Below are positions 324 to 59,595 of a DNA stretch of 64,000 nucleotides, in pieces. A model generated the notes under the pieces. The model saw only the letters and a list, made by a program, of their open reading frames with translations. It did not search any database and was not told the origin of the DNA. The position numbers were made by a program, and so were the translations under genes. The stretch covers positions 248,001 to 312,000 of the forward strand of contig JASANG010003810.1 of assembly GCA_030248215.1 (NCBI GenBank). The letters are read 5' to 3'. The DNA is from Enoplolaimus lenunculus. Taxonomy: Eukaryota. How positions within the stretch are numbered: the first letter of the stretch is position 1; the number at the start of each line of letters is the position of its first letter.

Positions 324-3300
324 CTCAGGGCATCAGCGCCGTACTGGTTCGCAATAAGCATTGGATCTGGAAAATTTTTCTTGCGTTTACTCATTTTACT
401 TCCATCTTCGGCGAGCACAAGGCCGTTGGCAATTAAATTTTTGAACGCTGGTTTACCGAACAATGCTGTTGACAGGACCAAGAGTGTATAGAACCTAAAA
501 TAACTTATTAAAATTTAAACCTTTTCAATATGTTTTAACCCCTTCGCACATAGTTAGCCGTGGGCAACTCAGCGCAATGTGCATGCGTGAAATAATGTAT
601 ACCAGCACAGTGTTTAACAATTGCAACACGTATGCGTAGTACAAAATCCTCATAATACGTAAGAGCTCTTTTTGGCACGCGTGTTAACCTAGTATAGCTG
701 AGTGGTGTTGATAAACGTTTTCCACTCCACACTCCATGTTTCAAAACCAAGCATAAAAATTATATCTCACAGGAGAGGAAACAGAAAGTATTCATGAGAG
801 AAAATTAAATAATACACAATTACGTACATTTTATATTTCAGTTCGTTATCGTCAAGCCTTGAAACGAACAGATGTCTAACTTTTAGCAAAGGTTCAGTAA
901 ATGTCAAGCTAACGTCCACTAGAAACTGCAGATTTTTTAAACACATTTAACAACTATCCCAACGCACGGATTACTGATTGCTACATCAGAAAGTGCCACT
1001 AAAATTAAAAAATAATTTTCGCAACTCAAAGTTGATATAACACACACCAGCCTCTCGTTTGATCAATGCCTTCAGCGATAAAATCCGCAGGAAATATCGT
1101 TTCAAATTCAGATTTATTTTCAAACGGATAGTGTGACTGAGCATAAGGCATGCATCCAGACTCAAACCAGCAATCGAAAACTTCACTGACACGCCGCAAA
1201 AACGTCCCTGGCCTACTCCGGCTTGGAATCAATATTTCATCCACACTGAAGCAGTAAGAAAACAGCAATACGCACTCTGTGCATGCTTCAAATAATGCAA
1301 ATTATTTAGGCGACTGAAACCAAAACATAGAGCGTTAGCCATATCTGATCACAACAGTTCACCGAATATCATCTTTCTCGGTATGTCAGCCCAAGCGTAA
1401 TTCCACTCTGTACTCAAAATCTTACTTGCCAAATTACTCCTTTAACAACTTTTTTAACACATAGAAAGAAATGTAAATTCTTTTTAAATTGTTTCTTTTA
1501 ATATTCTTTTTTACAACACCGTCACACTTTAAACTGAAAAAACACATTTGGATAGATAGATTGAGAAAAAGTTGCAAGTAAAGCGTGTAGACCCCGTAGG
1601 TCGATTAAACTATGCACCATAACTTACTCCACCTACAGGTACTAATAATCAGACAAAGAAACATGGCTTATTATTTACAGCGACAGTTTGACTTACCGCA
1701 AAATGAATTAATTTAAATAAATGACCATACCAAGTATGAATTAAAAATATCTGCTAACTTGTCTCGGTGTAAATCTTCAACTTTGCTCCCAGACAATTCT
1801 TCTAGTTCGGCAATTGACCCGATGCAAACAACCTATAAAAGAGAATGGAAAAAGCGTAGACTTAAATTTAACTAATTCTAAGATAAGCAGTACCATATAG
1901 AGCCCTTCACGAAAATTTTGCTGCATATGCCCTGGGTCTCGAACGCACGACTTACGGATTACCGATCTGCTAAACCATATGAACCAAAGAACACGTAAAG
2001 CTTCATATAATCACCACCTAAAACTAACAAGTCAAAAGTCAAAGAAAACGCAGATGATTTTTCCTAAGCTGTAAGCTTTCTGACGAAATCGAGTTCGAGG
2101 GAAAAGCAGACTCAAGTTTTTATAATATGCCTGGCCAACTAAAATGCTATTTAAACGTCACATTTCACACTACGTAAAAGTTTTTTCCTTAAACTCCAAT
2201 GCAAACTGCCCGTTTAACCCAGTGCAAAATTAAAACTTTCCTCCACTTCTACGAATTCACAGAAAACACTGCCAACTTACTTCCTCAAAATCTTCGCTAA
2301 CCCATAATGGAATTGGTGTACCCCAATAGCGATTACGGCTCACTGCCCAATCTCGCGCGTCGCGCAACCAATTAGCAAAGCGTTTGTCTTTCACGAACGA
2401 AGGCACCCTGGGAACATAAAAACACTTTGATTTAAAATAGCCCTAAAAGAAAACAGTTCAAAAAATTTGTAAAGCTTTATTTGCACATGCTAGTTTACAA
2501 CATCGAGGACTTACAGTTGACACTGCCGTGTTCACATTTTTTTCGAAAATACTGTCACAAATTTTGTAGCTGTTAGCTCATGCTGCAAGAACTTGCACGT
2601 GTAAGTAAGCAGAGATTAATGTGTAGGTCACAATTATTTTATTCCAAATTCAATTCTGTTTGCTGTTCTGATTTCCGCAAATTTAAACCAGTCGTAGAAG
2701 AACTACATGTATTGAGCGAAGCCCGGACACACTTACTTTGTAATCAGTCTAGTTACGCATTCCAAACAATTAATCAAATATGCAGATTAGCTTTAGCGAA
2801 TTATCCACTGATCAGTTTTGACGGGTTATAATCAGTGTATTCAGATTTCTAGCACCAAAAAACCCTTTAGTACTAAATTTGATTGCTGGTAACCATAATA
2901 ATCAGTGAAGTAATTTAGAAAGTCCTAATTTAGGCAAAACTAAATAAATGATACGCAAATTAACTATTAGCTAATTATTCAATTATCGGTTGTGGCGTTT
3001 ATAAACAATTTATTCAGATTGCTCGCACTAAAAACTATTCAATAACCCTAATAATGAGTGAAATAACTTAAAAAATCCTAATTTAGGCTCACCAGTTAAG
3101 CTAATATGCAAATTAGCTATTATCTAATTATTTAATTATCCGTCTTGAACGTTTATAAACAATTTAGTTGATTGCTCGCATATAAACGTTATAATCAGGG
3201 TATTAGCTTACTATTCAATTATCGGTTTTGGACGTTTATATACCATTTATTCAGACTTCTCGTACCCAAAACCCTTCAGTACTAAAATTAAATTGCCTGT

Positions 3301-6300
3301 AACCCAAATAATTAGTGAAATACAGTAAAAAGTCCTATTTTAGGAGGTTAACATTGCAGGATAATAAACTTTCAAACAAATAAAGTTAACCAGTCGTAGT
3401 GGGACTACATTCTTCGCACCTAAAAACCCTTTATTGCTGAAATTATACCGCTTTTAACCTTAATAATTAGTGAAATATTGTAAGAAGTCCTAATTTAGAC
3501 TTACAAACTATGCTAATATGCAAATTATGTATTAGCTAACAACGCAATTATCAGTTTTGGAGGTTTGTAAACAGTCTACGGAGATTTCTCGCACCCAAAA
3601 ACCCTTTAATGCTAAAATTAGATTGCTTCTAACTGTAATAATTAGTGAAATATTGTGGAAAGTCCTAATTTAGGCTTAAATAATTATGCAAATTAGCCTG
3701 TAGCTAATAAACAGCTTAAAATTTTAAAACCCCAATGCGAGGTTAACACTCCAGGATAATTGGCTTTCAAACAAAAAAAGTTTATCAAAATCGGTTCAGC
3801 CGTTACTGAGATTCTTTTCGGACGGACAGACGGACATCCACCTTTCGACCCCCAAGTACAAAACATAAAACGCTTCGCGAAACTCCGAGCTTCGCTCGGA
3901 GTTTCGCTTCGCTCAATCAAAATCGGTTCAGCAGTTCCTGAGATTTTTTTTCGACGGACAGACGGACGGACATCAACCTTTCGATTCCAGCGTAGAAAAG
4001 ATAAAACGCTTTTTAGAAAAACCAACTTATTCTAATAGCAAACCATTTAAAATTAAAAAATCACATTTGACACTGTCTTAACAAAAAAACCAACAAAACC
4101 ATGTGAACCTTACCAATAGGTTTGACTGTTGCACTCAAGCAACTGCTCAACTAAAGATTCGACTCGTATAAACCACGAAGGAACCGCCTTGTAAATCAGC
4201 GGAGTTTCACTTCGCCAACAGAACGGGTACGAATGTTTCGTTTGCGTTGAGTGCACCAACCGATCCGCTTTCTTCAAATTGGTAATGATTGCTTTATCTG
4301 CGTCCTGAAAAAACGATACATAAAAACTTGTAAACAACGACGTATATATTAAAATGTCTTACTCATATTGCTGTCGCTGGTGGACATCAGTACTTAACCC
4401 GAAATTTTCTGTTATCTAAAAATTATTGTGCGCAAAGTCAAACAATGCCCGTAACAGGGCCTGAAAGAAGCAAAAAATGGCAACTAAAAATTCAATCGAG
4501 CAACTACAAATACATACGTATGCAATACACCTACATAACAAAATACTCGTACGTATAATCAAAAGCATGTTTATACATTAGATCCACATACTTTAATATA
4601 CATTCCATGAAAGTCAGGTACTTCATCCGTAAAACATCCAGTTTCATCCACTGGACATATCATTCGCATATCTTTGCTGATTATTTTGTTATACAAACAT
4701 ACACGGTTGTCATCCTAAACAACGTATAGCACAATCAATACGATTGAACGTAAGATTTAACGAATAGCATAAGTACAGTAGTGAACAATTTTTTAACGCT
4801 GAATCAATGTTCCTTAATGCTCATTTGGTACGTACTATCAAACTCTATTTGTCCTTAACAAGAATTGTATAGCACCAAATGAACCATCACGCGTTGCATT
4901 TATGCGCAATCTCACCGGATGACCATATTTCAAGAACATAAGCGCAGCGACTAACGAATCTGATGGCGCATAATAAACAATAGCTGAATAAATCGGCAAA
5001 CTATATCCACTAAATGGATGGATTACCAAAACATAGTGCTAACCCAGGCACATTCTTTTGTACACAAAACGTACTCACTAGCCAGTTACAAACTAGTGTC
5101 TAAGAAGTTAACATTAGTGTATTTAGTTGCAAACTCTTGTCTAATAGTTATCATTGACTTTTGGTCAAACTTTACCTCGCCAAAATACGGCGCCTGATGT
5201 ACCACACCTGTACCAGATTCAGTCGTTACATACTCATCACAAGTCACACGGAACGCTTTTGTTTCCGATTTCAGACGTATAAAATAGTCAAACAGTGGTT
5301 TGTAGAATTTTCCTTCCAACGATTTTCCTTTAAATCTGAAAACACAAAACATGCATTAAGATATACTACATACCTTGAAATGTTTTCCGCTGCAGCGCAC
5401 TGAGTTTAAGTCATGTGCCTTACAGGGACTACAAAAACCATAAATGAACCCAATTTATAAACATTAACTCTGACGTTACCTTTAAATGTCAACCAAACAG
5501 AAATATAAAATTTTGCGCCAACATTTTTAAACCATAAAAACGAAAACTATTAAAATTTGTTGTCTAAATTTAAAAATCCGAAACAATTCTGTTGTTAAAG
5601 TACTTAGCAAATATTTGTTTACACCCCGTTTTTATGAAACATCTGTTTTCGCCGCATTTTCTTTGTATTTCAATGAACCTTCTTTTCGTTGTTTCCATTC
5701 ATATATGCATTCCTATTTCAACAAACCGTTATCCTCGAAATAATATTTAAACTAACCGGTCAAGGACACAATACTCTTCAGTATTTTTATACATAATTTC
5801 AAGCCGTGCTTCCATCAGTATAAGCTTTCGTCCACTATTATTGTCTGAAACAGACATAAAACAGCATTCATTGGCAGCATAGCATGCTAACTGTATATAT
5901 ATATAGTCGTATCCAAAATAAACAGGATGTATACGGTACGGACAGTAAACAGCCAGGTGCTACCGGAATTACAATTTACCGAAACCGGAACCGAAATTTG
6001 AAAAAATTACCGGAAACTGACGCGTAAAATTAAAAATACATGCCACCGAAAAATTCATTTTAATTTTCTTCTTTTGCAATGTTATTCGTGAAATAAAACT
6101 AGTTGAAATAGGTATTGAATTTATCTGTTGTATTTTACATTTTCCCAATCCACGGATGCAAAATCTATCTTCGATGGTTTGTGGAAGACGATAAAATACA
6201 ACCTAGAAGAATGCACTTGTTTACTAATTTGTCTATACCAAACTTTCTCCGACACCACAAATAATTTTAAAAATTTCGAGCTCCTGACACCAATGTTACT

Positions 6301-9300
6301 CCAATTTCATGCAACTACTGTTCATTAGGGAGTTGCAAACTCCATCTCTCTAAAGTTACCAAACAAAGCACACTGCATTTTGTGAAAACACTCATTTCAA
6401 TATCAACCAACCTTGTATCAGTACATAATCTAGACCGGGATTTACACAAACACCTAAATTGCTTGGCAGAGTCCAAGGCGTTGTTGTCCAAGCGACAAGC
6501 GAAACGTCAGGATTATCATCTAGGGGAAAGCTGACGATCACTGAAATGAACAAAAATAATACATTTTGTATAACCCATATTTACAACTATGTATACCACC
6601 TATCACAATTTAACAGCAGGTCTTGTATCTATTACAAATTTTTAATCAAATTTTATTAAATTCCACAAGCTTTTCGCGACTGAGATATAACTAACTACCT
6701 GTTAAATTTAAGCATAAGTCATGTCATTTGGTCCAAATAACAGCTTCTTACTTTCTGTTTCACCGGCGACAATACTTAAAGTTTGTTATTGCAAACAATA
6801 TAATCAAATCCAACAAGTACGTTTACATTATAAAATACATCCAACCGAAAATCCATACCAGAGGGATCTACGACTTCTTTATAATTTTGACCGGATTCAA
6901 AATTTGACAATGGTGTACTGCAACCGGTAGAAAATGGCATTACCTAAAACAAGAAACAATACAACGACTAATCTAAATAAATACACCACATATTCTGTTC
7001 TCCTTTCTCCGATGATATATAAGCAAACAATTAACCTAAGCGCCCGTTCTATCAAGAAAACAATGGTCAACTTCTTTAAGCCTAAACATAAATTTCAGCT
7101 GCTCGATAACAATAAAACTTAGAAAACACGAAAATCTGCTTAAAACAGAATTGTTGTCCAAGTGTAAGTTGAAAAGATATCCGGCCATATTTAACAAGTT
7201 AAGCCGGCAATGTTAATCAGACAACTTACAACGCACAGGCGTGTTATAGACTCCTCGGAAAGTATAAATACAAAAGTAACACCTAATGCTGTATTTAAAA
7301 TAAAGAAGCAAACACGGCAAAACATTAACCACAAAATATACCTTAACTCCTCGATAGACCAAACCTTTCTTGAAAAGTTGACTAAAAACCCACCAGACAG
7401 ATTCCATAAACCATGGATACATTGTTTTGTAGTCATTTTCAAAATCAATCCAACGTCCAGTTCGTGTGACAATATGCTGCAAAAATATTTTCCTTCCTAA
7501 TATTTCATGAAAGTGTACGACTTAGAAAATTTTGAGTAACGTATCAAAGGCCAGACCTCAGTCTTATTTAATCATACAACAGAATGACCTATATGCCTAA
7601 TTGACCAAACTACTCAATTTATCAGATATGGTGAAACAAACGACTCAACTACTGGAGTTTCCCTAGTGGGAGAAGGATGCCCCCATCCACAACTGAGCTC
7701 CCCCCCCCTACTCCGATCACTTCCCCGAGTTGGTCACCCCCTCGCCTTTTAAAACCCCTCTTGCAAACACCAAATTTATTTACAACTTCCACACTTTTTA
7801 GGTATAATTTGAATGTACATAAATTTTGCTTCGCCTCTAACAGCTCCTCACCGCTGTTAGTAAGCTAACAAGAACCGCAGGAAATCCCTCGAACCAAGAA
7901 CTCATACCTGCCATTCAGCTGAGTAACGCATCACAATAGCGCGACATTTGTCATTGTACGCTTTTATTCCCATTTTTTCTACATCAGCCGGTCCACGTAT
8001 GTTGTTTTCTTTGTCAATTTCGTATTCCTAAAAGCTATAAGAAGCTACAGATGATGACTAAACAATCAAAATTTGGTGTTTCTTAACTCATAAGATTATT
8101 GTCATTAATTCTAAATAAGAAAAAACTGTTTCTCATACACAGAAAACATTCAGTCACAGCATCTTGGCTTGATTAAATTTGAAAGCATTGCATATTCATG
8201 AAAAATTTGCATCATTTATGCGCCGTTCGCAATAAAATTGTCATTGCACACGGCGCATTACTGCTTTGTTTTTTATTGCGAACGACGCATTATTGCTTTG
8301 TTTAGAAGTATACAACATTATTACACAGCATGAATGGCGTCAGCTAAAATTGTATGTCTAGGTTGTACGGTTTATAGCGAAGTTCGGTATAGAGTCTATA
8401 CATCACATAGGCTGAATAAAATTGATAACGCAAAAAACTGAATGGGTTCATAACAGAGTCATTAAGATTTTAATTTAGACTTTAATTTAGTCATCCTAGT
8501 TTTTAGAGACTGTGTAACGGACCAACTGTGTCCAAACACCTCGAGGTCTCTTTCAATGGATATGTATCTATCTATCTATCTATGGGTGGGTTCGAACAAG
8601 CGACGTACGGATCCTTAGACAAACGATCTATCAATGCGCCCCGCATCCGCCTGTCTAACTGCTTTTCTTATCGACTGTATGTCGACATGTTTCCAGTCGG
8701 CGAGCACACATACAGTGCACACCACATTATTGCATGTGCACATAACGAACAAGCATGTGTAACATGCTTACAAAAACAAAATATTCTTACTACTGGCAAA
8801 CCGTGACAATCCCATCCAAACCGACGCTCAACATGAAAGCCGCTTTGATGAGCGTATCGCGTTACGATGTCTTTGATTGTCCCGGCAAGCAAGTTTCCGT
8901 AGTGTGGCAGGCCAGTAGCAAACGGCGGACCATCATAGAACGTAAACCTAAAGCCATACAACCATGGTGGCAAAAAGTGTGGATATGGATTGGGAAAACC
9001 TTCGCGGTTCAAATTCAAATGTGATTATGAAAAAACCGAATCTAATAGCTGAATCCAACAGTTTGACAATATACGCTTACATTCTGAAAACAAAAAAATC
9101 AATATTTTTTGTTTCACGTCACAAGTCTCAGAAATAAAGTGGGTCACAACATAATTGCGTTTGCGAAAAAGCAGCTTTGCTGAACTAATTGTATTAGGGT
9201 TGACAATGTTCTCATTTTATTAAGTTGGTACGTCTCTTAAACAAATTATCCATATATCGGAAATTTGCAAAATGCAAGGTTCGGACTCGGATTTGGCAAA

Positions 9301-9490: not shown

Positions 9491-10530
9491 TCTAAAACAC
9501 ACAAATGATGTTTATAGCACATGTAGTAACGCTAATTTTTAACCACATATTTATTGCAATTGTTGCCACTAGCTACGTTGTTTCGACAGACAACAAAATA
9601 ACAATATTGTATAAGGTTTTGGCACAAAAAACTAGACCAATGTTACGTTTAAGGACGTAACAGTAAATTAAGCGGAATCCTAAGGCTAAACCTAAGCCTA
9701 AGCGGTGCAAAAATGAGCTCCTAAGCCTAAGCCTATGCCTAAGCAAAAAATGTAATGTAGAGACTAAACCTACTCTTTTTATAGACCCATCAGTAACCTG
9801 GACTCCCCTTAGTGTAACTACATGGGCCAACTACTGGTACAGTTTAGCTGAACACTTACAAACCGACTCTAATTAAAACTTGGTAAACTAGAGAGACTGG
9901 GATATTGGACGACGGGGACACTGATAGAATAAATATTTAGAGACAGGACGGCGGGCTCGTAGCCAAAAAGGGCTTGGTGGTTCAGCCCCTTTGTAAGTAT
10001 TTTGGCCCCTTTTAATAAAGACCAGTTTCAACCTTGCTTGAATAATCATCGAAAATTAGGTACGCTGGGAGCGCGGGTTACTGAAAGACTCGGGCACTAG
10101 GAGACTGGGAGATAGCTGTCCAATCCTCTTGTTTTCTCGAAAAAATTTAGAGCTGTTATGCACATGACCGAGACAAAGATGCCGGATGATGTTCAACCAA
10201 ACATAGTGGACAAGCGTAGCCTCAGTGTAATTTAAGGATAGGTCTGTAACTAAACCTAGCTCTAAGCCTAAGCTTTTAACAAAAATTAGCTTAAAGGCTA
10301 AGCTTACAGTATTGCAGCACGGAGAAAAATGACCATCCTCCATGTTATAGGTAAATATGAGTGTATCGGGGTTGAGAAACGATAAACGGATAGCTAGTTG
10401 GAGATGAAATTGTAAAGCTACTTGTAAGCATGTGAGACATGCTTGTCCTGGTGCATATGCAATAAAAGCAATGTACATTGTGTTGTACGGTCGACATATA
10501 TAGTCGACGGAAAACGCAGTTGGAGGGGCG

Positions 10531-10602
10531 GACTACGTGGCGCAGTGGTAGAGTGCTCGCTTAAGGATCCAAAGGCTAAGAGTTTGATCCCCGCTCTAGC
10601 CC
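10531..10602 (+). pseudogene. tRNA-like cassette in 5' LTR (Pro-like)
   Basis: 72 nt. A box TGGCGCAGTGG, B box GTTTGATCC, acceptor strands GACTACG/TCTAGCC, followed by GCTTTT. Confidence 0.65.
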
Positions 10603-10866
10603 GCTTTTCCAACTGCTTAGTTGAAAGGTCTGATTTCCCGCATCCTACCTAGACTGACATGGGGGCTACTCCGTGGACGCAATGGCAAACTGCCGCGCTA
10701 TGAACACGGTATCCAGTCGAAAATAGGATGGACGGTCAAGGGACGACCTTGCTGAAAATAAGGGCATGTGAGACATGCTTGTCCTGGTGCATATGCAATA
10801 AAAGCAATGCACATTGTGTTGTACGGTCGACATATATAGTCGACGAAAAACGCAGTTGGAGGGGCG

Positions 10867-10938
10867 GGCTACGTGGCGCAGTGGTAGAGTGCTTGCTTAA
10901 GGATCCAAAGGCTAAGAGTTCGATCCCCGTTCTAGCCC
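10867..10938 (+). pseudogene. tRNA-like cassette in 3' LTR (Pro-like)
   Basis: 72 nt. A box TGGCGCAGTGG, intact B box GTTCGATCC, acceptor strands GGCTACG/TCTAGCC, T4 run 2 nt downstream. Anticodon and T stems are degenerate. Confidence 0.7.
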
Positions 10939-11124
10939 GCTTTTCCAACTGCTTAGTTGAAAGGTCTGATTTCCCGCATCCTACCTAGACTGACACTACT
11001 GTTTACAGCGGGTTGGAGTGTGTTAACTGTAAAACCTAACTTAACTCGTTATTGCCATTCATTTCGTGTTCTAGGTGTTTGTTTGTTTGTTTGTTTTTGT
11101 AAAGTACTAACAGGCATATTAAAT

Positions 11125-14100
11125 ATGCATTTCCGCTATCAAGAAATTGATCAGGAGTTTTTCACTCCAAGATCTTATCAGGTACATTCTGAAGTTTTCC
11201 GCTGCATGCGTTGTAGAATCATGATGCCATACAGGAGTCGTTTGAACGATGCCGGTTAATTTAAAATTGTTTCAGTGTGCAATACGCTATCATGGATTTG
11301 CTTACAGTAGACTTTTGACTAAAGTTCACCAAAATTATGCGAGAAAACGTAATGTAAGCATGTGATACATGCTTGTCGGAGAGGCGGGCTACGTGGCTCA
11401 GTGGTAATAGCGTCTGCCTGACACGCAGAAGGTCGCTAGTTCGAAACCATCCGTAATCCGCTTTTCTAGCTGCTTAGTGAAAAGGTGTGAAGTCCCGGTT
11501 CCTACCTAGGCTGACATGGGGACTGCGCCGTGAGCGCAATGGTAAATTGCCGCGCTGTGAACACGATATCCAACCGAAAATAGAGTGGACCGTCAAGGCA
11601 AGATCTTGTTGAAAATTGGGGCATGTAAGCATGTCAAACATGCTTGCCGGCTGCATACGGTCGACATATAGTAGACGATAGAAGCAGTTGCAGAGGCTGA
11701 CTACGTGACGTAGTGGTTACAGCGCTTGTCTGACACGCAGAAGGTCTCTCGCTGCTTAGTGAAAAGATGTGAAGTCCCGGCTCCTACCTAGACTGATACG
11801 TGATTCGATGTTTTAAGATCGAACTGGTCGACAAAGCTAAGAAAGAAAACATAATCGTACCTTTGGGAACTGGAACTGGGAAAACATTCATTGCGGTAAT
11901 GCTGATTCGTGAAATGGCGACAGATGTCCGAATACCATTAGACAGTGGTGGTAAACGAACGTTTTTCTTGTGCGTCACAGGTAGAAATAAAACTTTTCGT
12001 CTTTTATGGAATGTATTTGATACACATTTGCATCGTCCAATTTGTTTACTTTGTTTCTGCGCATAAATATATAATATTCACATACCCGGGGCGAGCAATA
12101 CACTCCAACTTCATATGTTTTTGTATTTTTGCGTAAGCTTGTACCTGGTAGTGCGTTACCCTTGTTATCATATCGCGTCATGCGACATTTTGTTTATATA
12201 CTCCCATACTGTGACGCGCGTTTTTCAGTCCCCACTCCAATATTTATAAACTTTCTGTTCCCGTTCTGTTTCTTTGAGCAGATACGCAAATGTAGTTCTG
12301 GTTCCGTTCATGGTACCGTATTGCCCCGACCCCGGGACAACTCTAATATATACGTATATATACATATATACCAGGGTGGAACCGGAATTCCGGTTCCGGC
12401 ATTTTTTCACCTTCCGGTTCCGGTTCCGGTAAATTTTTACCGGATTTAAAAATTCCGGTATTATAATTTGGCCGTTTTCTTAACTTTGCTAATTTTTAAG
12501 AATTTCTTTTGAAAGCCACTTGTACTCCGAATATAAGCCATTGATGGTGGATTTCACTTCAGTCGATGATGAAAATCTAAAATACAACAAATAAAATAAA
12601 TACCTATGTTCGACTAAGGTTATTTCACAAATAATAGAGCAAAAAATAAGATTAAAATGAAATTTTTGGTGAAATGCGTTTTTCACTTTCCGGTTCCGGT
12701 AAAATTTTCAAATTCCGGTTCCGGTTCCGGTAAATTGTAATTCCGGTTGCACCCTGATATATACGTATGTCGTGTATATACACATATATTTCTATGTGTT
12801 GGGTCTTCGTTCAAACTCGATTTGCCTCACTCCAGATCAAGCTCCGTACTTGAAAATTTGCCCCCAGTCAAATATTTTTAGGTTTTTAAAAGTTAACTTT
12901 TTTCACATCAAGTATTCTCGCCTGAAAACTTATTTTGTTGCGACCAGGCAAACATAGGCGACACGTTACGCATAGCGATCGACCGGATATCCGGTTTCAG
13001 TTTGATATCCGGCAAAAATCGACATCCGCATCCGGAATAGGAACCGGAATTTGAGATAATTTTCATCGCCGAATTGCTGTTGAACTTTTTAGAAAATTTT
13101 CCAACAAAAGCCTTAAGCGAATTTTCAGCTATTTCAACATCAAGTTTTGCGAATACACATCACAAATAGTTTATTAACAACCACGCATGTCGAAATAACA
13201 ATTTTTCAGAAGCAAAATTTGCTTGCTATAAAACTTTAAAATTTCCGGTTCGTGCATCTTTGAATACAGAAACGGGAACATGATTTGAATTTTTGAAGGA
13301 ATTCCTTCCGGAACAGCAATTCCGGTAGAAATCCGGTAAAAATAATATTCAGTCAAACCCTGGTTACGTTTTTCATTGCCAGGAAAAGGCAAACTGTTGA
13401 AGTTATATTATGTTTTAGTTCCGTTGGTTAGGCAACAAGCCGAACATATCAGGAAATTCACTGATCTTGAAGTTGGTGAATTTCACGGCAAAATGAATGT
13501 GGATTTGTGGGTAAGGTTCTTTTTATTAATGTATTTCTTTTTAATAGCCTGCGCATGCAGCGATTATGAAATACGCGCGGTAGTCGATGCTAGTAGTATT
13601 AGCACTTTTTATTACAGTGTTTGCATTTGCCTGATTTCCGTGTTTATAGTGAGATATGTGTAATTATTTTTAGGAAAAGAGTCAATGGGAACAAGAGCTG
13701 GCGAAAAACAACGTTCTTGTTATGACTGCGCAAATATTTCTCAATCTTTTGAACCATGGCTACTGGACACTTGAGCGAACAAATTTGCTGGTTTTTGACG
13801 AATGTCATCACGCTAAGAAAAATGACCCATACAAAGAAATTATGACACATTACAGTCAGATGGAACCGAGTAAGTGGTGACTTGTAATTTTGGCGGCACC
13901 AGGTTGTGGGTCGTCTGATGTAAGGGAAGCTTTGTCTTGGTGTCGACGGTGAGAAAAAGTCATTTTTTTTCAAAAATAAATTATTTCAAGGTTTGACCCT
14001 TCTTGCTTTGTAGAAGAAAGAGTTTTGATTTTTGATTTGAGCAGTATTCACATGTGCAAGTTTTGAATTTATATGAATACATTGCAGACGTCTGCAATAC

Positions 14101-17100
14101 ATATCAAGCATAAGCTGTAAGTTATCAGTGCAGCCAATGATAAGGAATTAATTCGACTTGCAAGGCTCTTTATACCTCTTCGTTAATTCATAGCGCGTAC
14201 TAATCATGAAAACCTTGCAGCTGCTAGTTTCACCTGCAAAACACATTAACGCTTGAAGAAATTGTACTCGAAATTTCTAGGCTTGCAAACGCTTTTATAC
14301 CGATACAATTTATCTTTAATGCTTAAAAAAGAAAAACAAGCCCGTCACAATTGCTATTGACTGCAAAATATCAGACAAGTTGGATAGTTGACTTAATTCA
14401 AGACTCTTGAATATATTCATAAAGTGCGACTTAATTCATATGCACGCAAAAGCATGTCTTCCGATTGGCCAAGCAAAATGCAGGTGCAAGTAACTAAAGC
14501 GACTTGCAAGTGTCACACGTGCGAATTAATATTAACAGCAAGAAGCTCATTGAATAATTTGCAGCTGCAAGAAATTCAAAGCTGTTTTGTGACCAAAGTG
14601 GCACATGCAAGTTATGTGCAATTTTTGCTGCATAAACTTGCGCGTGTGAATAGGGCTTTGGAAAGAAAAATGCCATGGGTTGACGGTTTTACGCTAATGA
14701 CCATAGATTTCAGATTTTCGCCCTCGGATTCTTGGTCTGACAGCATCGGTCATCAATGAAAATATTTTACCATCTGAGCTCGAGAATAAAATTCTGCAGC
14801 TGGAACAAATTTTAGACGCCAGAATTGAAACGGCGTCTGATATTGTTATTGTATCTAAATACGGTGCAAAACCTAAGCAGTTAATCGTAGCGTGCAAGGA
14901 TTATGAAGATCCAACTGGACAATCAGCTGCGGTGATTAAAATTCTTGACAAGGTAAGGCTAGTTTAGCTCTTACCATTATATATACTAATATATACCGTT
15001 GGCACGGAGATGGGAAAGATAAAGCTTATTGAAGACATATTTAAAACTATAATGTACTTTATAGCCGAAGTTGGTGCAGTAAGTAAAAATGGTTTGTACA
15101 TACAACTAAACGTTTTGAAGCTTGCATGGTTGCGTTACAAGTAAAGTGAGTGTTACCAGTCGTAGTGGGACTACATTTATTGAGCGAAGCTCGAACACAC
15201 GTAAGCAATTAAGGTAATATGCAAATTAGTTATTAGCTAACTATTCATTTATCGGTTTTGGAGGTTTGTAAGCAATTTCCTCAGATTCCTCGCACCCAAA
15301 AACCCTTCAGCCACCCTATAATTTTTGGAATAATTTAAAAAATCCTAATTTTGTCTTGTCAATTAAGCTAATATGCAAATTTACTATTAGCTAACTATTC
15401 AATTATCGGTTTTGGAGGTTTGTAAACAATTTATTTAGATTCCTCGCACCCAAAAACCTTCAGTGAACCCTAAAAATTATTGAAATAATTTAAAAAGTCC
15501 TAGTTTTGTCTTGTCAATTAAGCTATTATGCAAATTAGTTATTAGCTAACTATTCAATTATCGGTTTTGGATGTTTGTAAACTATTTATTCAAATTCCTT
15601 GCGCCTAAAAATCCTTTAGTGCTGAAATTATATTGCTTTTAACCTTAATAATTAGTCAAACATTGTAACAAGTCCTAATTTAGGCTTATACCCTACTAAT
15701 ATGCAAATTATCTATTAGCTAACTGCTCAATTATCGGTTTTGGAGGTTTGTAAACAGTCTACACAGATTCCTCGCATCCAAAAACCCTTTAATGCTAAAA
15801 TTAGATTGCTTCTAACTGTAATAATTAGTAAAATATTGTGGAAAGTACTAATTTAGGCTTAATTAATTATGCAAAAAGCCTGTAGCTAATAAACGGCTCC
15901 AAATTTTAAAACCCCAATGCGAGGCTAACACCCCAGGATTATTGGCTTTCAAACAAAAAAAGTTTATCAAAATCGGTTCAGCCGTTCCTGAGATTCTTTT
16001 CGGACGGACAGACGGACGGACGGACATCCACCTTTCGACCCGCAAGTACAAAACATAAAACGCTTCGCGAAACTCCGAGCTTCGCTCGGAGTTTCGCTTC
16101 GCGCAATAATTTATGTAGATGTTAGTATAAGTTGTACTTGTCTTAAAATATCCTTGACTGGATAGATTTGCGTAATCCCTCTGACGCAATGCACTGTTCT
16201 GTTTAATGAAATGTTACGGCAGGTCTGCGTCTGCTTCTATGAGCTTGCAGTTATACCGTCAGGTTCTCAGTTTCACGAAGCGAACAAATTTTCATAAAGA
16301 ATTTGATTTGGAGCCTGCAAAAGCGCCATTGGAAGCTTTTTGGCGAACGAAGACAGTCATCGAACAACTGGGACCCTGGGCTGGATGGAAAGTTGCTCAC
16401 GAGCAAGACAAAATGCTGCAAAAGTTGTCGAAATATACAATGACTCCGATGCAGGTGTGTAAATTTATATAGTATTTTAGTCTACTAATGCTTATAATAA
16501 CTGTTTTCTTTCAAAAACATAAGAAATCTGTCGCTTGACTTTTCTGGAACAAAAGGTAGAAACAACTAAATAATCGTACACTTGATTTGTAATATATCTC
16601 CAATAAAATATTTTACGAAACAACATCCTAAGTAAATTTTGCTATTTTTTAGGCTTGTGACAGACATTTCTATCGTAAACCTAACTAGTTGTGCGGCGGA
16701 AACAGCAACGGCATAATGAGCCTTATGTAGCAATAGTAGGATTAGAACGAGAACTAATTTTCAGGGTTGCTGTTTCAGGAAACGTTTGTTAACCTTGGCA
16801 GAACCTATTTGAGAGCTGTTTATCGTATGTTGCACAAGAAAATGTCTAAAATCAAAAGTGTCAAAGATTTGATGGCTGTAACTCCTCCCAAGGTAAGCAT
16901 GTAGGCTTGCTGGGCAAACATGGATACCTACAAAATGTCTGAGCCAGACGCATTACCGAAACTGAATATTAAGTACTGTTTTATTTCTGGTAGATTTTCG
17001 ACAACCGATATCGCATGAATTTGAAGTGAATAGATTTATTTTGCTTTAACAGTAGATCCGTAGCGGTCTAGTGTTTGCTTGATTTTGTGTTGTAGTAACA

Positions 17101-23100: not shown

Positions 23101-26100
23101 TTTTGGAAAGGGAGTTTCGTTCAATAAACTTTCTAAGGAGGATTCTTGTGTTGCAATCTGGTACTGTGTCTAAAACCCAGGTAAAAATAGGGGATTGACA
23201 CCTGAAAGCCCTCTGACTACGCCATAGTCCGTAATCTACTCGAAATTTGCTGTTTTTTATCAGATTCCTAAATTTCCGTTGTACACGCGGCATGGCGAAT
23301 TTCAAATCACCGTGAACACACTGCCTGACCAAGTGACAATAACTGAGTCGCACCTAGAAGACGCAGCAGTTTTTCATCATTACTTATTCTCAAATTTACT
23401 TCGCCTTGAAAAATACAGCATGCACTTTAATCCTGGCCGTGCTACAAACGCTTCTTTAATTGTGCCGTTGGTCAAAGGTGAGACACATGATTATATGATT
23501 TGTCGCTGTTCAGTATTTTTAACGTGCAATGATGTGCACTATTTAGCATTTCGTAAACGCAGTAAATACAGCGTTACATAGGGTGTAACAAGTCTAACAA
23601 AAGTATATTGTATTAACTGAAATTTTCCTAATATTTCGCTGTTACTTTTGTTTTAAATGACAGGAATACAGGTATAGCAAGAAACACTACCAAAACCCGT
23701 TTAAGAACGTAACTGTAGCAAATTGTTGCAACTAATGCTAAATCAGCGTGATTCAATGTTAGTTTTTCTTTAATTGGAGTATCCGGCTCCGTTATTTTTT
23801 GGTATCCGGTTGAACCCTGGTTCTACATATATGATACTGCATGCGGACATACGGAAAAAATTTAAGGATTCCGTTCGTTTGTTACAGATACCGCTGGCGG
23901 TTTGACCATTGACTGGGTATTCTTAAACGAAATCGTGTCTGTAATTCGACATTTACCCCGTAAACCAACCCTCACTGAACGGCAAAATTACGAATTTGTC
24001 GCGTCTCGTTTCGAAGATGCTATAGTTCTGCCCTGGTATCGAAACGTTGACCAACCGTTGTTCTATTTTGTCGCTGATATTTTGACCGATTACACGCCGA
24101 ACAGCGCGTTTCCAGATGATGAATTTGAAAATTTCAACGAATATTTTATGAAAAAGTATAAATTGGAAATATTTCAACAAAATCAACCGTTGCTCGATGT
24201 GGATTATACCTCGAATCGGTAACTGTTTATTTATTTGTTTGTTTATTTATTTTTTATTGAACTGACATTGAATATATTACAAGAAAATGTGAAATATGAC
24301 GCAGCAAAATGAAGAATAATTCTAAATTAAAAACACATTGAGACAATAATTTGAGGTAATAACAGTTTATAAATTTTTTGGTGACAGCTATAACCACTGA
24401 ACAACGTTATCTGGTGAACTTAAGTTATTGTAGGCCTTGTATTGGAAATTTTTATACTTGGTTGAATTTTGTGTTTGTATTAAGGTGCTTTGGGTGTACT
24501 TTTTTAGATTAGACTCGCGAGAAAAAATGTGATATAGATACGGAAACGCTGGCTGAGAGGGCAAAATTGTGACAAAATTTTTGGAGACATACTGAAAGTG
24601 TGCAAAACAGTGTTTCTCTTCAGATAGAAAACATGTGACAACAACTGATCTTAGGTGCTATACACATTTGAGAATATCAACTAGAACCACAGGTAGACCG
24701 TTGACGTTGATCTTGGTTTAGGCTCAATTTATTGACCCCGCGACATTTGGGACGCCGTGCTCAAATCAATCCATCAAATAATCAGCAAAATAACCAAACC
24801 GGTTCTGAGGAATCAAACAAAGCTACTGTATGCAGCAACAACAACAACAACGATAATAACAATAATAATAATAGCAACAACGACGACGACGAAGATTGCG
24901 ATAACAAGCAACAATTAGAAGTAACTACAGCGAACGCAACTAGCACCACAGCGACTGCGACGGTTACACAAAAGCAAATTTTGATCCCTGAATTGGTTGA
25001 CGTTCATCCAATTCCGGCGTCTTTGTGGAATATGATTACGTGCCTGCCGTCTGCGCTGTATCGGTAAGGGTGGTGCTACACTTTTTGGCTAATTTAATGT
25101 ATGGCAACGCTTGTGAAATGTTTGACTTTCGATGTCGCTTACGATACACTTAAATGGTTTTTCCTGTTTTTGGTCAAAGTTGCGGCTGTTCGTAATGAGT
25201 GAAGACCGAAAAGTTTTTCAAAATACTGGTTTGGCTAATTTTTACTATAAATAAAGCTGTTTCAGAATTAACCAACTGCTGCTTGCCGACGAGCTGCGAA
25301 TTCAAGTCGAAACAGAAGCGTTTGAAAAAATTGGAAATCCAGATACTGGAAGCGCTGAATGGCCACCGCTGAAATTTTCACATTTTCCGCGAAATGGTCT
25401 AGGATTTGAGCAGGACACAGGGTTGGAAAGTGGTGGGCCGGATGACAATGGAAGCGCTGCAGCATTTTCTAGAAGGGGATATTTTGCTTCGCCACCAGTA
25501 AGTTGTTTTTTCCTTTCTGGCTCATTTTTTTAAACTTCATGAAGTCATATTTTAATTAGCGATACACGATGATGGTGCAATTTTACGGGGCTAAAACGCA
25601 TAAGTATTACTGCTTGAGTTCAATTCGTTGTGCTAAAGCGGCAAGCGTAACTGCCAGATTTTACCTGATAACACACATGTGTCATGCGTATAAACCTAGG
25701 CCGTGTTTATAAAATGCAATTTTCAAAATAATTGCTCATCTTGATCGGCTTGCAAGCAATATTGCTGTGAACACTTTGTTGGTGGAGCGTAACCAGGATA
25801 TTGAAAATGGGTGAAAAATTTCTTGCAAATGGTGGATAGCCCATAAACTTGCCCTGCCTACGCCCTTGATTATTAGTGATGCATTTTAATTTAGGTGCCG
25901 CTAACAACCGCATCAACCACAACGCAAGCGCAACCAACATCGAAACAAGAAAGTGATTTTGAAATTGGCGTTTGGGATCCGTGTCTTGCCAATAGTTTGA
26001 CAAATATCGATCAGTTGTTGCCCGATGGTACGTATCTAGCGGGATTGTCGAATGTTGAGCTACTGTCTATGTCAAGTATTGAGTTTAACGGCGTCACCAA

Positions 26101-35027: not shown

Positions 35028-35207
35028 GGGCCCATGTATAGAACACGGTCGTATCGTTTTCAAGAGGGGCTTATAATAGAGTCAGTTTAAGCTTTAGACT
35101 ATTTTTTGCTTAGGCTTAGGCTTCGGCTTAAGAATAGGCTCATCTATACGCTTAGGCTTAGGATTATGCTTATACTATTATTCTGGCCCTGTTCTATACA
35201 TGGGCCC
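35028..35207 (+). mobile_element. MITE carrying TTAGGC telomere-like repeats
   Basis: Perfect 18-bp TIR GGGCCCATGTATAGAACA with internal TTAGGC runs. Degenerate relatives near 9635-9828, 30645-30778, 40420-40571, 59065-59228 and 62500-62600. Confidence 0.8.
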
Positions 35208-36834
35208 GAAAGTGACCTCAACGAAAAAAATTTTCTTGTTACAACAAGCGTAAGACTCAGCGTAACTATAAATGTATAACTAAGTTTAGGCCTGACCCTA
35301 AGTAAAAAAGTTATATTACTCTATTGGAGTCCCGCAGAAAAGCCCTAACCAAGATGAAACGTATATTCCAAAATGATTGTCACAAACAAACACAACTGAA
35401 AGATATTTGAAAACACAACAACAATATATAAAACAGCAACATTGTGGTATAGATAGACATGTTTGTATCAAACCTAACAACCTGATTATATACATATATA
35501 TGATGTATATTATGTAGCAAATAAACTATTATATATAATTATTTACATAATTCATCAAAACGATTTATAAGTATACACAATCAAACGTTTACAACTATAA
35601 ATCCCAAGGAACCGTATAGTATATTCTCAGCTGTGTCTAACCTTTATCACGAGTCAGAGCTTATTTTTCAAAACGAACTGTGACAACTGCCTTATATACG
35701 CATTTTTTGCTTACAAGTATGAGCAAACGAAGCCGAAAAAATATTATAACTTTCCAAAGCACACCGACGTAATTTGACAAGGAGTCAATGACAACACAAA
35801 ACAGACTTCTAAATAACATTTCATTTTGAATTTTAGTCAATTAGCAGCAATGCATTGATGCAATATCTATATACAATTCCTGTTTCAGTTCCTGTTCCTG
35901 TTCTGGCGCGAAAGTGAATTCCTGTATTCCGGTTTTCGCTTCCTGTGAAGAGTAATTCCTGTTGAAACCCTGGCTGTAATAATGCTAAATGCAACGTGAG
36001 ACAAATTTTTTTACCATAGCAATATAAAAACATCAGAGTGCGACTGGATATCCGGATCCTGTTAAATATCCGTCAAAAACTGATATGCGTACTTGGTTCC
36101 GGTATAAAACTACAGGATGTTTAAGGTGGTGATCCCGCATTTTAAAAATGGTTTTTTACAAGGAAGCGTATTTAACATCATGCTGCGATGGCATTTCTGA
36201 GCATTTCAATAACATCCAGTTTTAATACGCTTCAATAAAAATGAAAAATTCGAGCGAATAATTTATTAAATCGAAATCACTAAACATATACTTTGTATTG
36301 TTCCACTTAAATACTCTAACCAGTGATTTCATTCCGATGCTATATCCAGCTCCAGTTACGGTAAAAATTCACTATCCAGATCAGGTTGCGGTATCCGGTA
36401 AGTTAACATCCGGTCATACCCTGAAAACCGCGTATCGAAAATAAATCATCCGATTGATAACAAAAACAGATTCATAACCAAATTAACTTCAAATATCCGT
36501 TAGATGCATTATTCTGAACACATACATACTTGTTATATGGCAACTTGACCGTTCAAAAGCGAAACGTATCCAGCATTTCATTTCCAAAAACGATAACTTC
36601 GGCTAAGTGTTTGCGTTTTAAGCAAAACATCAAAAAACGATGATTTAAAAACATCACATCTTTTTACAACAGAATCACCAATATTAATTTTATGGAATTT
36701 TGCACATTCATCAAAATTTGTTACAATTTTGCAAACATCGTTTATCCTTAAACCCTCTCCATGTGCAATAATTTGTCCAAAATGTGGATTAAATATTCAC
36801 ATGTTAAACATCCCAACGTTGCGCATGGTTTTTA

Positions 36835-55191: not shown

Positions 55192-56897
55192 AGCCGCTTA
55201 TTATTTCACAACCAAAAAATGATAGACACAAGTCGCTTTGATGTTTAGATTGTTTCAGCCTAGAATCAGCTAAAACACCGGAATAACAATGAATACGTTC
55301 AAGCTACACATACGTATATATGCATATATCTCATTAGTGTACATTTAATCCAGCCATCCATGTGATATCATACAGGATATTAGTGATGCGACAATACCAA
55401 AACTTTTGCCGATGCCGATACCGATTCTTATTCTGAAATTTCGCCGATGTAGATAACGATGCCAATTTTAAAATATTACTAGATCACTTCATTATAGGTC
55501 CAAACACTTAAACCTTGACTACCATAAACGGTTACTATTTTATGTTAAAGGGACATTTCAGTTAATTTTCTCAAACACAAACGCAAGAGACATAACAGCT
55601 TCCTGAACAGATTATATGAACCAATAGGTGAAATTGATAGCATTCCATCTCACTGCTAAGTGCGAAAAGCATCGGCAAAAAATAGTATTTTTTTACAATG
55701 CCGATGCCGATACGCAAGAAAAGGATCGATATTACAGATTCAAATTAATCAGCATATCCCCATACTCCTGAAATTTGGTTCCACAAATATTAGTGTTGCG
55801 ATTCAGAGCTATATATTATACATACGTAATGATGTGGCCGAACATGGTCAAAACAAATATATTATATCAACTAGTAAAATCAGTAGAAACACTGTAAATA
55901 TATACTTCATCACAACAGATGTTTACACCGTAAAACATTTGTTAGAAACTAAAAATAGCCCTGCGATAGCAATCTTGTTAACGCTGCCGAACCTATGCCA
56001 TGAAAGCCCCAGAACTTACTTGTTGCCAATAGTTAACAAGCTATTTAAGGCAAGTAAATGAACGTTTCGCAACCGCGACTGTTATGTCATGTTACGGTTA
56101 TCGGTTGGACTTAAATACAGGCATATATATTTACTGCGACGCTTTTTCAAGTTCTGCAGACAAATATCAGAATATACACTCAATGGCTGCAGGTTCAGAA
56201 ACAATGTGCCTAACGAATCACTTTGCAACATATTACTCATATATTCAAACCTGCATCAAAGCAAGAAACCATTCTGCAAAATATTCGTCACGTGACTACT
56301 AAACATTAAAACCAGAAAATCAATCATAGTGCTCACAAGAAAAACACAAATGCCATAACAACTAAGTATGTATCACATTATTACGCCGAGCAGTAATCGT
56401 AACACTTAGACATAGTCTTCCTCACATCAGTATAATAGTTTTTTCTAGCTTTGTAGCTGCACCTTTGTACATTATTTGTGCTAAAAACAGAGTGTTTCTT
56501 ACATTAGCAGGTTCCAAATTGTTATAGTTTTTTCAAACTTTGTAGCTTAACTAGTTATGTACTTCGTTATACTTGTGACATGCGGATGCATAGAGACAAC
56601 TAATAACCTCACACTGATGCTGCACATCGGTAAAAATCACTGCTGCAAATGTAGTGATTTCAAATGCAGCAGCAATAAAAACACGGAAGAACCAAGATGC
56701 GTGCGTATAATGTTGAGGTTCTTATAAGGCATAAAAATAGAAAAACTCAGAAGTTGATTGTGAGGCAGCGTGACTCAGTGGGTAGCGCGCTAGACTGATA
56801 ATCTGTCGACCGAGTTCGTAGCCTCCTGGGAGCGTCCCTCATTTTCAGCTGTTAACTCAGAACTAAAAACCGTCGTACCCAAACCTACCCAAGTTAT

Positions 56898-57107
56898 TGT
56901 CGGTATATGTGCACGTAAGTGTGTGTAAAGCAAATGTTGCCATGCCTGTGCACATATACCGGTATAAGAAGTTGTTGCAATGGCCGCGTGGTGTAGTGGT
57001 TGCATGCTTGGCTCGAGCGCAAGAGGGCCGAGGTTCGATTCCCGGCGTGGTCATTAACTTTGGGCAGAACTTCAAACAGGGGTCGTGCAGACCGTATAGT
57101 ACCAACA
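56898..57107 (+). mobile_element. Nested solo LTR with tRNA-like cassette
   Basis: Termini TGTCGGTA...TACCAACA, perfect TSD GTTAT (56893-56897 and 57108-57112). Internal palindrome GTATATGTGCAC...GTGCACATATAC upstream of the tRNA-like part. Confidence 0.78.
56982..57053 (+). pseudogene. tRNA-like sequence inside nested LTR
   Basis: 72 nt. Acceptor GGCCGCG/CGTGGTC fully pairable, A box TGGTGTAGTGG, B box GGTTCGATTCC. Anticodon and T stems are imperfect; isotype not assignable. Confidence 0.65.
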
Positions 57108-59595
57108 GTTATCACAATACTGTTTCTTACTTGGCACTTCTGTGTACGCATACACAACAATTTAATACAAAGGAATGTTTTACTTTCTAGTGATATTCAT
57201 ACAACAAAGGTAACTCCCAGGATAACACTAGAGCGACAGTAAATATTTATAATTATCCAAACATAATTCATTATTAAAAACGCTTTGGAGATCACGAAAA
57301 CATCAGGATTACGGCACCTACGGCCAGACCTCAATAGTCTTGAACATGATCCACTTCTGGATAAACAAAGAACAAAAGGTCGAAAGCCAACAATGCACAG
57401 TATAATGAAATATCGATTTTACACAAAGAAATCTTAATCTGCAACATTGAAGCAAAATTTATACTAGCTACGTATCTTTCACTATTAAAAGATAGCGCTT
57501 TGTAGTTGTAAAGTTAGCAAGAATTGACACATTACAGGCATAGGCAGCAGCTCTACAGCAGCTATAACTATTACCTTCCGTATTTATAATTATCAAGCTT
57601 GTTTGATTTTATCACCGCGCGAACCTTTTTAACACATGGGTTATTACACTTTATAATGTTTGTATCACTGCACTCTTCGAAATTTATAAATTGTCAAATT
57701 GACAGGGCAAATATAACACAGCAAAAAAATTGCAGTCAAAATATAAATTAATACCTTTTGAGGTTCGCGTTCGAGCAGTAAAAAATCTCCACAAGAGGTG
57801 AAATGTTTCCGGTTCAAAAATTAGGAATGCAACTCCTAGCGCACATTAATCTCTAAGATAGAGACTGAAACTATTTTTAAGAATGTATTATGCTTTTGGA
57901 TGCAGAAAGGACAGTGTTCCCACTGAGTTGTTTCATATCTGGGACCACAAAGGTCACGAGCGGATCACTTTTCCGCGGGACTGCAAAATAACTAAAGCAG
58001 CCTTGATGCTTGACTACTCCTAATAATATGCCTATACTACTTTTAATACGATCTAATATTATTTTCATTTCCACTTTGTGAAAACGTACAAGGGCCGAAA
58101 ACTATTTAAATTTTGCCATACGTTCTTGCGCTACACAATTTTTTATTACACTATAAAGTATGGAATGTTTAAAAAGAATTACATTTTATACCTGTTGTGA
58201 CTGAGAGTTTAGCCTCATATAAGATGTACCAGTTGTTGCATACAGTCCCACTGTTCAAATTGCCGACGCAATTCAGCAGGTGGAACTGTATGTTTCGTGT
58301 CTTTATTAGAGGCACTCAAAAATCAAATGTTTACTGTTCTTTTGTGACACTCACACAGCGGTTGCAATACTGTCGCTTTTAACCAAAAAATACATAATTT
58401 TTCAGCAGTCACACAGGTTTTGGTTCTCAAACATTAGTTATATTTTGTTCAGCGGTTCATACAATGTATGATATGTAAATGCTAAATGCGCCCTGTTTTA
58501 TATATCGATACCTCTCCAAAACAATACCTGCAACATTTTTTGGTATATACCTATATATGCAAGCGGGGTTTATGCACAGATCTTCATATTTAGAGAGAGA
58601 GCAATGTGTTCAAGCTTTACGGGCTCATATTGTATCCAATTTTAACTGGGTAAGTAGTGTTGAGTAAAATAATTGAGAAAAAATATTTAAAAATGTAATA
58701 TTATACAAACCGCAGCAGCGAATCACACTAAACAATTGTGGGAGGGCAACAGAAACAGTTCCTTCAACGGTGTACAGGTTTGAGAGAAAAAATAAATGTA
58801 CAGTGTTTGATGGTGGTCTCTAGGGTATGCAGGCACTGAGAGTGTAAATGTGCTACATCAGCACCGTATCCCCCTCGTTCGATTGCATTAAAGCTTTTCG
58901 CTCAACGACCAGACATTTTGCATTGCTGTCTGGGTCAGATAAAGAAATGAGCACATTATGGGTATTTTTTTCGGTTTTTAGCCAGTTTTAAAAGCGTGAA
59001 AATCTATATAATTTCATAAGATTTTAAAATCAAAGTATATGCCTCGTAAGGGATTGAGACATCAGCCAATGTATTAAAGAACAGGGGCGGAACAGTATTA
59101 CTAGCATATTCATTAGCCTGAGCCTAGCCTAAGCCTAAAGCCAAGCAAACAAATTAGTGTAAAGCTTAAGCATACTCTTTTCCAGTATCCCACAGAAAAA
59201 CTCTTTGCCCCCTGATCTTTACATGGTCCAAGACATCTTGTGGTCAAGATTAAATTAAGATAGACTGCAGTTTGAATTTTACATTTAAAACTGGACAATT
59301 TGTGCAAAAATCAGTGCAAAAGTAATAATGCATTTAGTTTTCGCACATATTTTAAACAGCACAACGAGCGGCATTATCTTAAACTTTTGTTGAGATACGT
59401 TTATGAAAACATTATTCATTACGTGTGCTGAAAGAATTGAGTCGTTTCGTTTGTAGTTTTTAGAAAATCACATCTATGAAGCTGAAATGACCCACATACG
59501 TATTTTGCACAGCGTTCCAGCGGATTTTTGCAAACATACGTATGCAAAAACAACTAAATAGTAAAAATATGAGGTTTTTGCATTATGCGTTGTTA

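Follow-up and report, generated by a model that had tools for sequence, protein, structure and literature searches.

Element A, a 573-bp repeat in the 64-kb window (the whole stretch of DNA analyzed here), belongs to a real, abundant and dispersed LTR family. The family is probably a high-copy, non-autonomous TRIM of the Helenus type, likely transcribed by Pol III from a tRNA-like cassette in its LTR, primed by a host tRNA of the tRNA-Pro type and mobilized by an autonomous LTR helper that leaves a 5-bp footprint. What is likely new in element A is the host, probably a nematode, the 5-bp rather than 4-bp footprint and a PBS that partly matches the element's own cassette. The features on which this reading draws are collected in Table 1.

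Table 1. Element A, its relatives and the neighboring Dicer exon, in window coordinates.
Feature	Position	Strand	Remarks
Element A, left TSD	10418..10422	.	CTACT, 5/5 letters identical to 10996-11000
Element A, 5' LTR	10423..10659	+	237 bp, TG...CA; unrelated flanks of other copies abut both ends
TATA-like hexamer (TATATA)	10497..10502	+	loop of a short palindrome, 29-34 bases 5' of the cassette; possible Pol III upstream element
Upstream arm of 15-bp cassette-closing stem	10516..10530	+	partner 10602-10616, including TTTT
5' LTR cassette, degenerate, tRNA-like	10531..10602	+	72 nt; A box 10538-10548, B box 10581-10590
TTTT after 5' LTR cassette	10605..10608	+	candidate leaky Pol III terminator
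Element A, interior	10660..10766	+	107 bp, TGG first; element B interior equally long
PBS, tRNA-Pro type	10660..10677	+	TGG-led; first 9 bases also pair with cassette 3' end + CCA
Polypurine tract, short	10754..10764	+	10/11 purines; also kept in element B
Element A, 3' LTR	10767..10995	+	229 bp, shorter than the 5' LTR by its initial 8 bases
3' LTR cassette, tRNA-like	10867..10938	+	72 nt; A box at 10874, B box at 10917; TTTT 10941-10944
Element A, right TSD	10996..11000	.	CTACT, pairs with 10418-10422
Dicer, likely first coding exon	11125..11181	+	between elements A and B; start of exon 2 at 11818
Element B, older sister TRIM	11353..11798	+	446 bp; LTRs 11353-11516 and 11624-11798; interior 107 bp
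Element C, old truncated LTR of A's family	8563..8772	-	in an intron of the class I aminoacyl-tRNA synthetase gene
Element E, solo LTR from a different tRNA-cassette family	56574..57116	+	328 bp without the nested element; TSD 5/5; TG...CA
Element D, solo LTR from a third tRNA-cassette family	56898..57107	+	210 bp, nested in E; TSD 5/5; TG...CA

Element A has the two LTRs, the short length and the lack of mobilization proteins that characterize TRIMs; its longest ATG-led frame comprises 86 codons and yields no Pfam match. Its LTRs are identical at 223 of 229 aligned bases, which bears out the ∼97% identical TG...CA repeats of the preliminary description; the 107-bp interior opening with TGG is confirmed as well. 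All six differences between the LTRs are transitions, which, together with the identity, indicates a fairly young insertion. The CTACT duplication reported earlier is exact: a 5-bp window matches at 5/5 letters, against 0, 0 and 1 letters for windows of 4, 6 and 7 bp, and the chance of a 5-bp match at the given ends is 0.0013. The LTR pair is thus as real as had been claimed, but it is uneven, the 3' LTR having lost the start of the repeat, and the purine tract described alongside it is short (Table 1). Since contigs from other copies carry the first 8 LTR bases (loose ends at 10769 in 37, 32 and 32 contigs), their loss is private to element A. The terminal inverted repeat is weak (5/8), an AATAAA stands at 10461–10466 in the 5' LTR, and the interior folds no better than its shuffles (z-scores of −0.59 and +1.85). 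The first 30 interior bases (10660–10690) resemble the acceptor and A-box region of the cassette, beyond the PBS as well; without the PBS, the best likenesses among 20 non-independent comparisons were reached by 0/1000 and 3/1000 shuffles. This likeness might suggest that the interior is a third, worn cassette, but a profile of six cassettes did not list it at E ≤ 2, and the idea plays no part in the reading given here.

Contigs from three DNA runs (X1, X2 and X3; two samples of one study) show that the family is dispersed; the best of these runs may be the source of the window and is not counted as independent support. The region 10200–12000 is matched by 9457, 4182 and 6282 contigs in X1, X2 and X3, respectively. 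Unrelated flanks (agreement of 0.36–0.39) join immediately before 10422/10423 in 262, 161 and 285 contigs (92+170, 53+108 and 101+184), behind 10659 in 80, 54 and 73, and behind 11516 in 98, 61 and 105; solo LTRs are counted here too, the figures do not stand for copy numbers, and a left flank cannot be paired with its right one. Because so many unrelated flanks meet exactly the TG and CA termini, the contigs describe a dispersed LTR family and not a SINE dimer, so the question raised in the preliminary description, whether other copies share the termini, is answered in the affirmative. Joins from the end of the interior to the LTR start (10766 to 10423) occur in 3–4 contigs per run. The 20-mer spanning the LTR-PBS junction has no match in metagenome contigs or in viral contigs; a 17-mer hit 120 metagenome loci, none of which aligned beyond 28 bases, and these were set aside as chance matches.

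Within the window, element A has an older sister, a truncated LTR of its own family and two unrelated counterparts. The LTRs of element B are identical at 113/133 bases, with deletions, and its TSD matches at 4/5. Compared with element A, identity is high at the LTR start (21/22), lower in the acceptor/D region (33/43) and in U5 (50/62), and lowest from the anticodon to the T arm (16/35): the element B cassette has preserved its acceptor and D region, but the anticodon arm is a different one, which ARAGORN reads as Val. The Val-like type recurs in the contigs, with loose ends at 10550 (19 contigs, X1) and 10600 (21 contigs, X3); a third one, distinguished by additional bases close to the cassette 3' end, gives loose ends at 10599 in 27 and 24 contigs. 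Elements D and E, whose ends were chosen by eye and with knowledge of the TSD, bring the window to at least three tRNA-cassette LTR families within 64 kb. A 5-bp TSD is found at all four bounded insertions (5/5 in A, D and E; 4/5 in B), the four on which this length rests, and other lengths do not fit.

The cassette of element A retains the A and B boxes of a tRNA gene and, more loosely, its shape. The preliminary description spoke of a tRNA-shaped cassette followed by TTTT; the 72-nt length, the A and B boxes and the T4 run all stand, while the tRNA shape is a loose one. The 3' cassette matches the Rfam tRNA model over its full length at 20.2 bits (E 0.34), below the gathering score of 29; the 5' cassette is absent from the Rfam tRNA matches at E ≤ 5, and ARAGORN calls neither as a tRNA. 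Acceptor-stem pairs, including G-U, number 6/7 in the 3' cassette and 5/7 in the 5' cassette, the T stem has 2–3 of 5 pairs, and the folding z-score is +1.58. A working tRNA was rejected on the sub-threshold Rfam score, the missing ARAGORN call, the z-score and the T stem. The A box fits and the B box departs by one mismatch from the GGTTC motif of Helenus, at a spacing like that of tRNA. Across six cassettes from three families these two boxes are the best preserved parts, and the anticodon arm is not among them. A scan of the window for box pairs returned seven matches (0–3 in ten shuffles), five of which are LTR cassettes. We infer that the cassette serves as a promoter and not as a working tRNA, which would leave the anticodon arm free to change. 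The B box of the 5' LTR cassette has a T at 10585, where 98–99.5% of the contig depth has C; with this private change, the 5' LTR of element A itself may be silent. Both ARAGORN tRNA calls in the window (Val at 11386–11461; Ser, the cassette of element D, at 56981–57054) are LTR cassettes, so the tRNA annotation of the host genome is likely inflated, and copies of such cassettes would raise tRNA gene counts.

Pol III transcription of the family is suggested by analogy with Cassandra, which likewise has a small-RNA promoter in each LTR and whose RNA, as outlined in Kojima's paper, runs from the 5' LTR module to the 3' LTR module (PMC10886601). In element A, Pol III would start near the 5' LTR cassette, sometimes pass the first TTTT, and terminate at the one in the 3' LTR. 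T4 runs occur nowhere in the element but at 10605 and 10941, each two bases past a cassette, and under this model the first of them must be leaky. The resulting read-through RNA of ∼414 nt would have a cassette at both ends, which would act as the R region in strand transfer. In element A the cassette is closed by a 15-bp stem, which is matched in stability by 0/2000 shuffles; the two commonest family variants within it (10526/10862 and 10612/10948) keep the pairing. In the read-through RNA, its arms would be complete only between the downstream arm of the 5' LTR and the upstream arm of the 3' LTR, so that the RNA ends would be brought together, an arrangement that would favor the first strand transfer. 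The computed fold of the predicted RNA contains this long-range helix, and the corresponding arms of element B (3'-LTR upstream with 5'-LTR downstream) pair at a stability reached by 1/2000 shuffles. The stem is marginal in the 5' LTR of B (41/2000) and in E (75/2000) and absent in D (747/2000). The enzymes of an autonomous LTR helper would then copy and insert the element.

The PBS points to a host tRNA of the tRNA-Pro type as the likely primer. Against the tRNA-Pro end drawn in Fig. S2 of the Helenus paper (PMC10886601) it forms 8 contiguous pairs plus positions 12–14, 12/18 by hand count, and 10 of 14 letters, again including 12–14, equal the PBS given for Cer1, the Gypsy/Ty3 element of C. 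elegans (PMC3315495; hand count); this primer is assigned from tRNA-Pro ends of other species, and mismatches remain at PBS positions 9–11. Short matches are no exception, as several PBSs in the same Fig. S2 are complementary to their primer along no more than a short stretch. The PBS of element A also pairs with its own cassette followed by CCA, at 9 contiguous positions and 14/18 in all against 12/18 for that tRNA-Pro, and the PBS of element B pairs with its own cassette + CCA at 9 of the first 11 positions, including one G-U. In most of the contig depth there is a G at 10670 (83–90%) and a G at 10532 (98–99%), so that PBS positions 5–11 equal seven letters of the cassette 5' acceptor strand (10867–10873). 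Most simply, one and the same tRNA donated the acceptor stem of the cassette and acts, or once acted, as the primer. The match lacks specificity, however, because the unrelated cassette of element D pairs about as well with the PBSs of A and B (−20.2 and −23.0 kcal/mol) as A's own does (−22.3 kcal/mol).

Three other explanations were weighed against this reading, two of which concern the nature of the repeat and of its cassette. Element A might be no LTR element at all, but a head-to-tail tRNA-SINE dimer or a local tandem duplication flanked by a chance 5-bp match. The cassette, the TTTT and the short length are SINE-like, the terminal inverted repeat is weak, and the few joins from 10766 to 10423 would also be expected from tandem arrays. 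Against this stand the many unrelated flanks that meet exactly the TG and CA ends, the solo LTRs with TSDs, and element B, in which the interior, again of 107 bp, recurs together with the PBS and the purine tract. A tRNA-SINE would begin with a tRNA head, end in an A-rich or repeat tail and make TSDs of variable length; here the cassette lies ∼108 bases inside the repeat, an A-rich tail is absent, and the TG/CA termini and 5-bp TSDs are fixed. We regard such a dimer as very improbable. It is also conceivable, if unlikely, that an LTR family carries the cassette as a passenger or structural piece, an old tRNA-SINE insertion kept for RNA folding (pairing of the ends or masking of the PBS), and is transcribed by Pol II. 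The AATAAA and the TATA-like hexamer (TATATA at 10497) are compatible with Pol II, and the first T4 run would end Pol III transcription early; the closing stem is conserved, its variants are neutral for pairing, and the B box has its mismatch to the Helenus motif. Yet a Pol II LTR would be expected to have these two signals in the reverse order, the AATAAA here preceding the TATA-like hexamer, and the 5' LTR of element B has neither hexamer, both having been lost either before or after insertion. Moreover, the boxes, unlike the anticodon arm, are the parts best kept, and each of the three families in the window has a cassette, as would suit a promoter more than a passenger.

The third alternative keeps the Pol III promoter but replaces the host primer: transcripts ending at the first TTTT would be trimmed, receive CCA and prime reverse transcription on the read-through RNA, the cassette coming from the same or a sibling subfamily. 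The pairing of PBS and cassette in A and B speaks for it, as do the seven shared letters and the TTTT two bases past the discriminator, resembling a pre-tRNA trailer. Kojima found no complementarity between cassette and PBS in Helenus (section 3.6, PMC10886601), which sets element A apart in this respect. One leaky Pol III LTR unit would then supply both primer and template, which would free a nematode TRIM radiation from the host tRNA supply and from helper-primer matching. In LTR replication the primer is copied back into the PBS at each round. The PBS should therefore track the cassette 3' strand; the letters that the commonest cassette type would imply for PBS positions 10–11 are not those observed, and the 3' strands differ among the three subfamily types, two of them seen in the loose ends at 10599 and 10600 (21–27 contigs), without matching PBS variants. 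No variant of at least 12% of the contig depth was found at 10660–10669 or at 10595–10596, the listing covering variants from 12% upward and away from contig ends. The poorly paired T stem makes tRNA-like processing doubtful, the cassette 3' strand is buried in the 15-bp stem, PBS positions 12–14 fit tRNA-Pro in register, and the unrelated cassette D pairs roughly equally well. Because the PBS does not track cassette variation among the subfamilies, self-priming appears unlikely, and a host tRNA of the tRNA-Pro type is retained as the likely primer. The match nonetheless makes the question that Kojima raised and dismissed, whether LTR tRNAs act as primers, testable in one family.

No autonomous partner of element A was found within the 64-kb window. 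Ganko et al. in 2001 reportedly described tRNA-like sequences inside some Cer elements. Judged by PBS and TSD alone, a Gypsy helper (Cer1-like or Mag) is somewhat favored, a BEL/Pao helper is possible but less likely, and a helper of any other kind is improbable. The BEL/Pao helper put forward in the preliminary description loses its footing here: a TSD of 5 bp is no mark of BEL/Pao alone, since it is also the prevailing length among the Mag-lineage Gypsy elements of Culex (5 of the 6 complete table rows examined, PMC3286476) and that of Ajax, and the PBS resembles that of the Gypsy element Cer1. The Culex elements share with element A an animal host, the 5-bp TSD and short LTRs, and differ in being autonomous and in using Leu or Ser primers in those rows. 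Cer1, as described in the portion of its paper used here (PMC3315495), also has its PBS right behind the 5' LTR and complementary to tRNA-Pro; unlike element A it is autonomous and protein-coding, and the comparison, made by PBS, marks it as a candidate kind of helper only.

Among described elements, the closest in kind is Helenus (TRIMp3; Kojima 2024, PMC10886601), TRIMs with tRNA-derived sequence in their LTRs that are thought to have arisen many times; the group exists as the preliminary description had it, tRNA-bearing and with 4-bp TSDs in animals. Element A falls within its operational definition, being a TRIM with a tRNA-derived A/B-box sequence in the LTR, a PBS and PPT, and a TSD within 4–6 bp. 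Like Helenus, as far as it is described in the sections consulted, element A is a short non-coding LTR element with an A/B-box tRNA-like cassette in each LTR that is unlikely to be a working tRNA; both show solo LTRs with TSDs and several families per genome, the 573 bp of element A lie within the Helenus size range (311–1263 bp), and Helenus-1_TeGr has a tRNA-Pro PBS. The differences begin with the host: Table S1 of that paper lists six animal phyla and no nematode, and the term "Nematoda" has no match in the supplement. In the same table the TSD is 4 bp in every animal family for which it was determined (two were not), against 5 bp in element A, which thereby departs from the described animal lineages. 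Further differences are the 9-base complementarity of cassette 3' end + CCA to the PBS, a feature stated in the paper to be absent in Helenus, the 15-bp stem closing the cassette, and sister subfamilies whose anticodon arms have been swapped. The Helenus supplement contained no match to three family-specific motifs (a motif search, not an alignment).

Other TRIMs resemble element A in single traits. Ajax, an animal TRIMp3, has 5-bp TSDs and an interior of 108–113 bp in the account of PMC10886601, where the LTR modules of Ajax and Cassandra are derived from 5S rRNA, in contrast to the tRNA-like module of element A. No 5S rRNA match was found by Rfam at E ≤ 5 in 10000–11400. Retrozymes carry a hammerhead ribozyme in the LTR; no hammerhead family is among the four Rfam matches at E ≤ 5. 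A literature search that left Repbase, Dfam and most subscription papers outside its coverage returned no nematode TRIM bearing a tRNA and no self-primed one, and the family may already be catalogued in Repbase or Dfam. The earlier suggestion of an undescribed lineage is therefore likely to hold at the level of family and host, but the kind of element was described in 2024 as Helenus. Nematodes would thereby join the hosts of Pol III-type TRIMs, at least three families of which lie in these 64 kb; the 5-bp footprint is an exception to the 4-bp rule among animal Helenus and would indicate another helper lineage.

The genomic setting places these insertions close to two host genes. On either side of element A a gene starts and runs away from it: a class I aminoacyl-tRNA synthetase gene (minus strand, first codon near 9490; PF00133), which we take from its motif to be IleRS, and Dicer (plus strand). 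The two starts stand head to head 1.6 kb apart, and elements C, A and B cluster within 3.3 kb around them; element B sits in Dicer intron 1 and ends 19 bases 5' of exon 2. With A between the two starts and B immediately before exon 2, effects on host genes can be tested. The Dicer PAZ exon found its best match, of 331 among 1.84 billion proteins, in an Ancylostoma protein (54% identity). Against 26 named Dicers, nematodes rank top for four of nine exons, clearly for three, and the other five are led by tick, cnidarian, spider, barnacle or bird. Single Dicer exons gave no match in two word-based protein searches. Overall a nematode host is very probable, one that belongs to a group distant from the nematodes sampled. 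Between PAZ and RNase IIIa, Dicer has an open exon of 582 codons (25895–27643), an acidic, low-complexity and unusually long linker, for which Pfam gave no match and one protein search no homologue.

Several other repeats were observed in the window. A dispersed repeat with degenerate telomere-like hexamer arrays occurs at 9668–9779, 35075–35211, 36831–37016 and 40410–40570, with GCTTAG arrays at 35108 and 40461; GCTTAG is presumably the nematode telomere unit read on the other strand. Inverted-repeat elements of ∼420 bp, with CCGGTT-rich and ATAT ends, are probably MITEs and are present in several copies and a tandem pair (12346–12789, 46733–48360, 49591–50471). A further family (2764–4011, 15155–16110, 29634–30015) has internal tandem units of 153–173 bp and a common tail, and is possibly Helitron- or satellite-like. 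The minisatellite at 41152–42024 repeats a 29-bp unit 30 times (93% matches), and its plus strand has long open frames. Finally, a minus-strand exon at 38718–39011 ends in a DTDLIQL motif reminiscent of the DIDLID element of SKN-1/Nrf factors.
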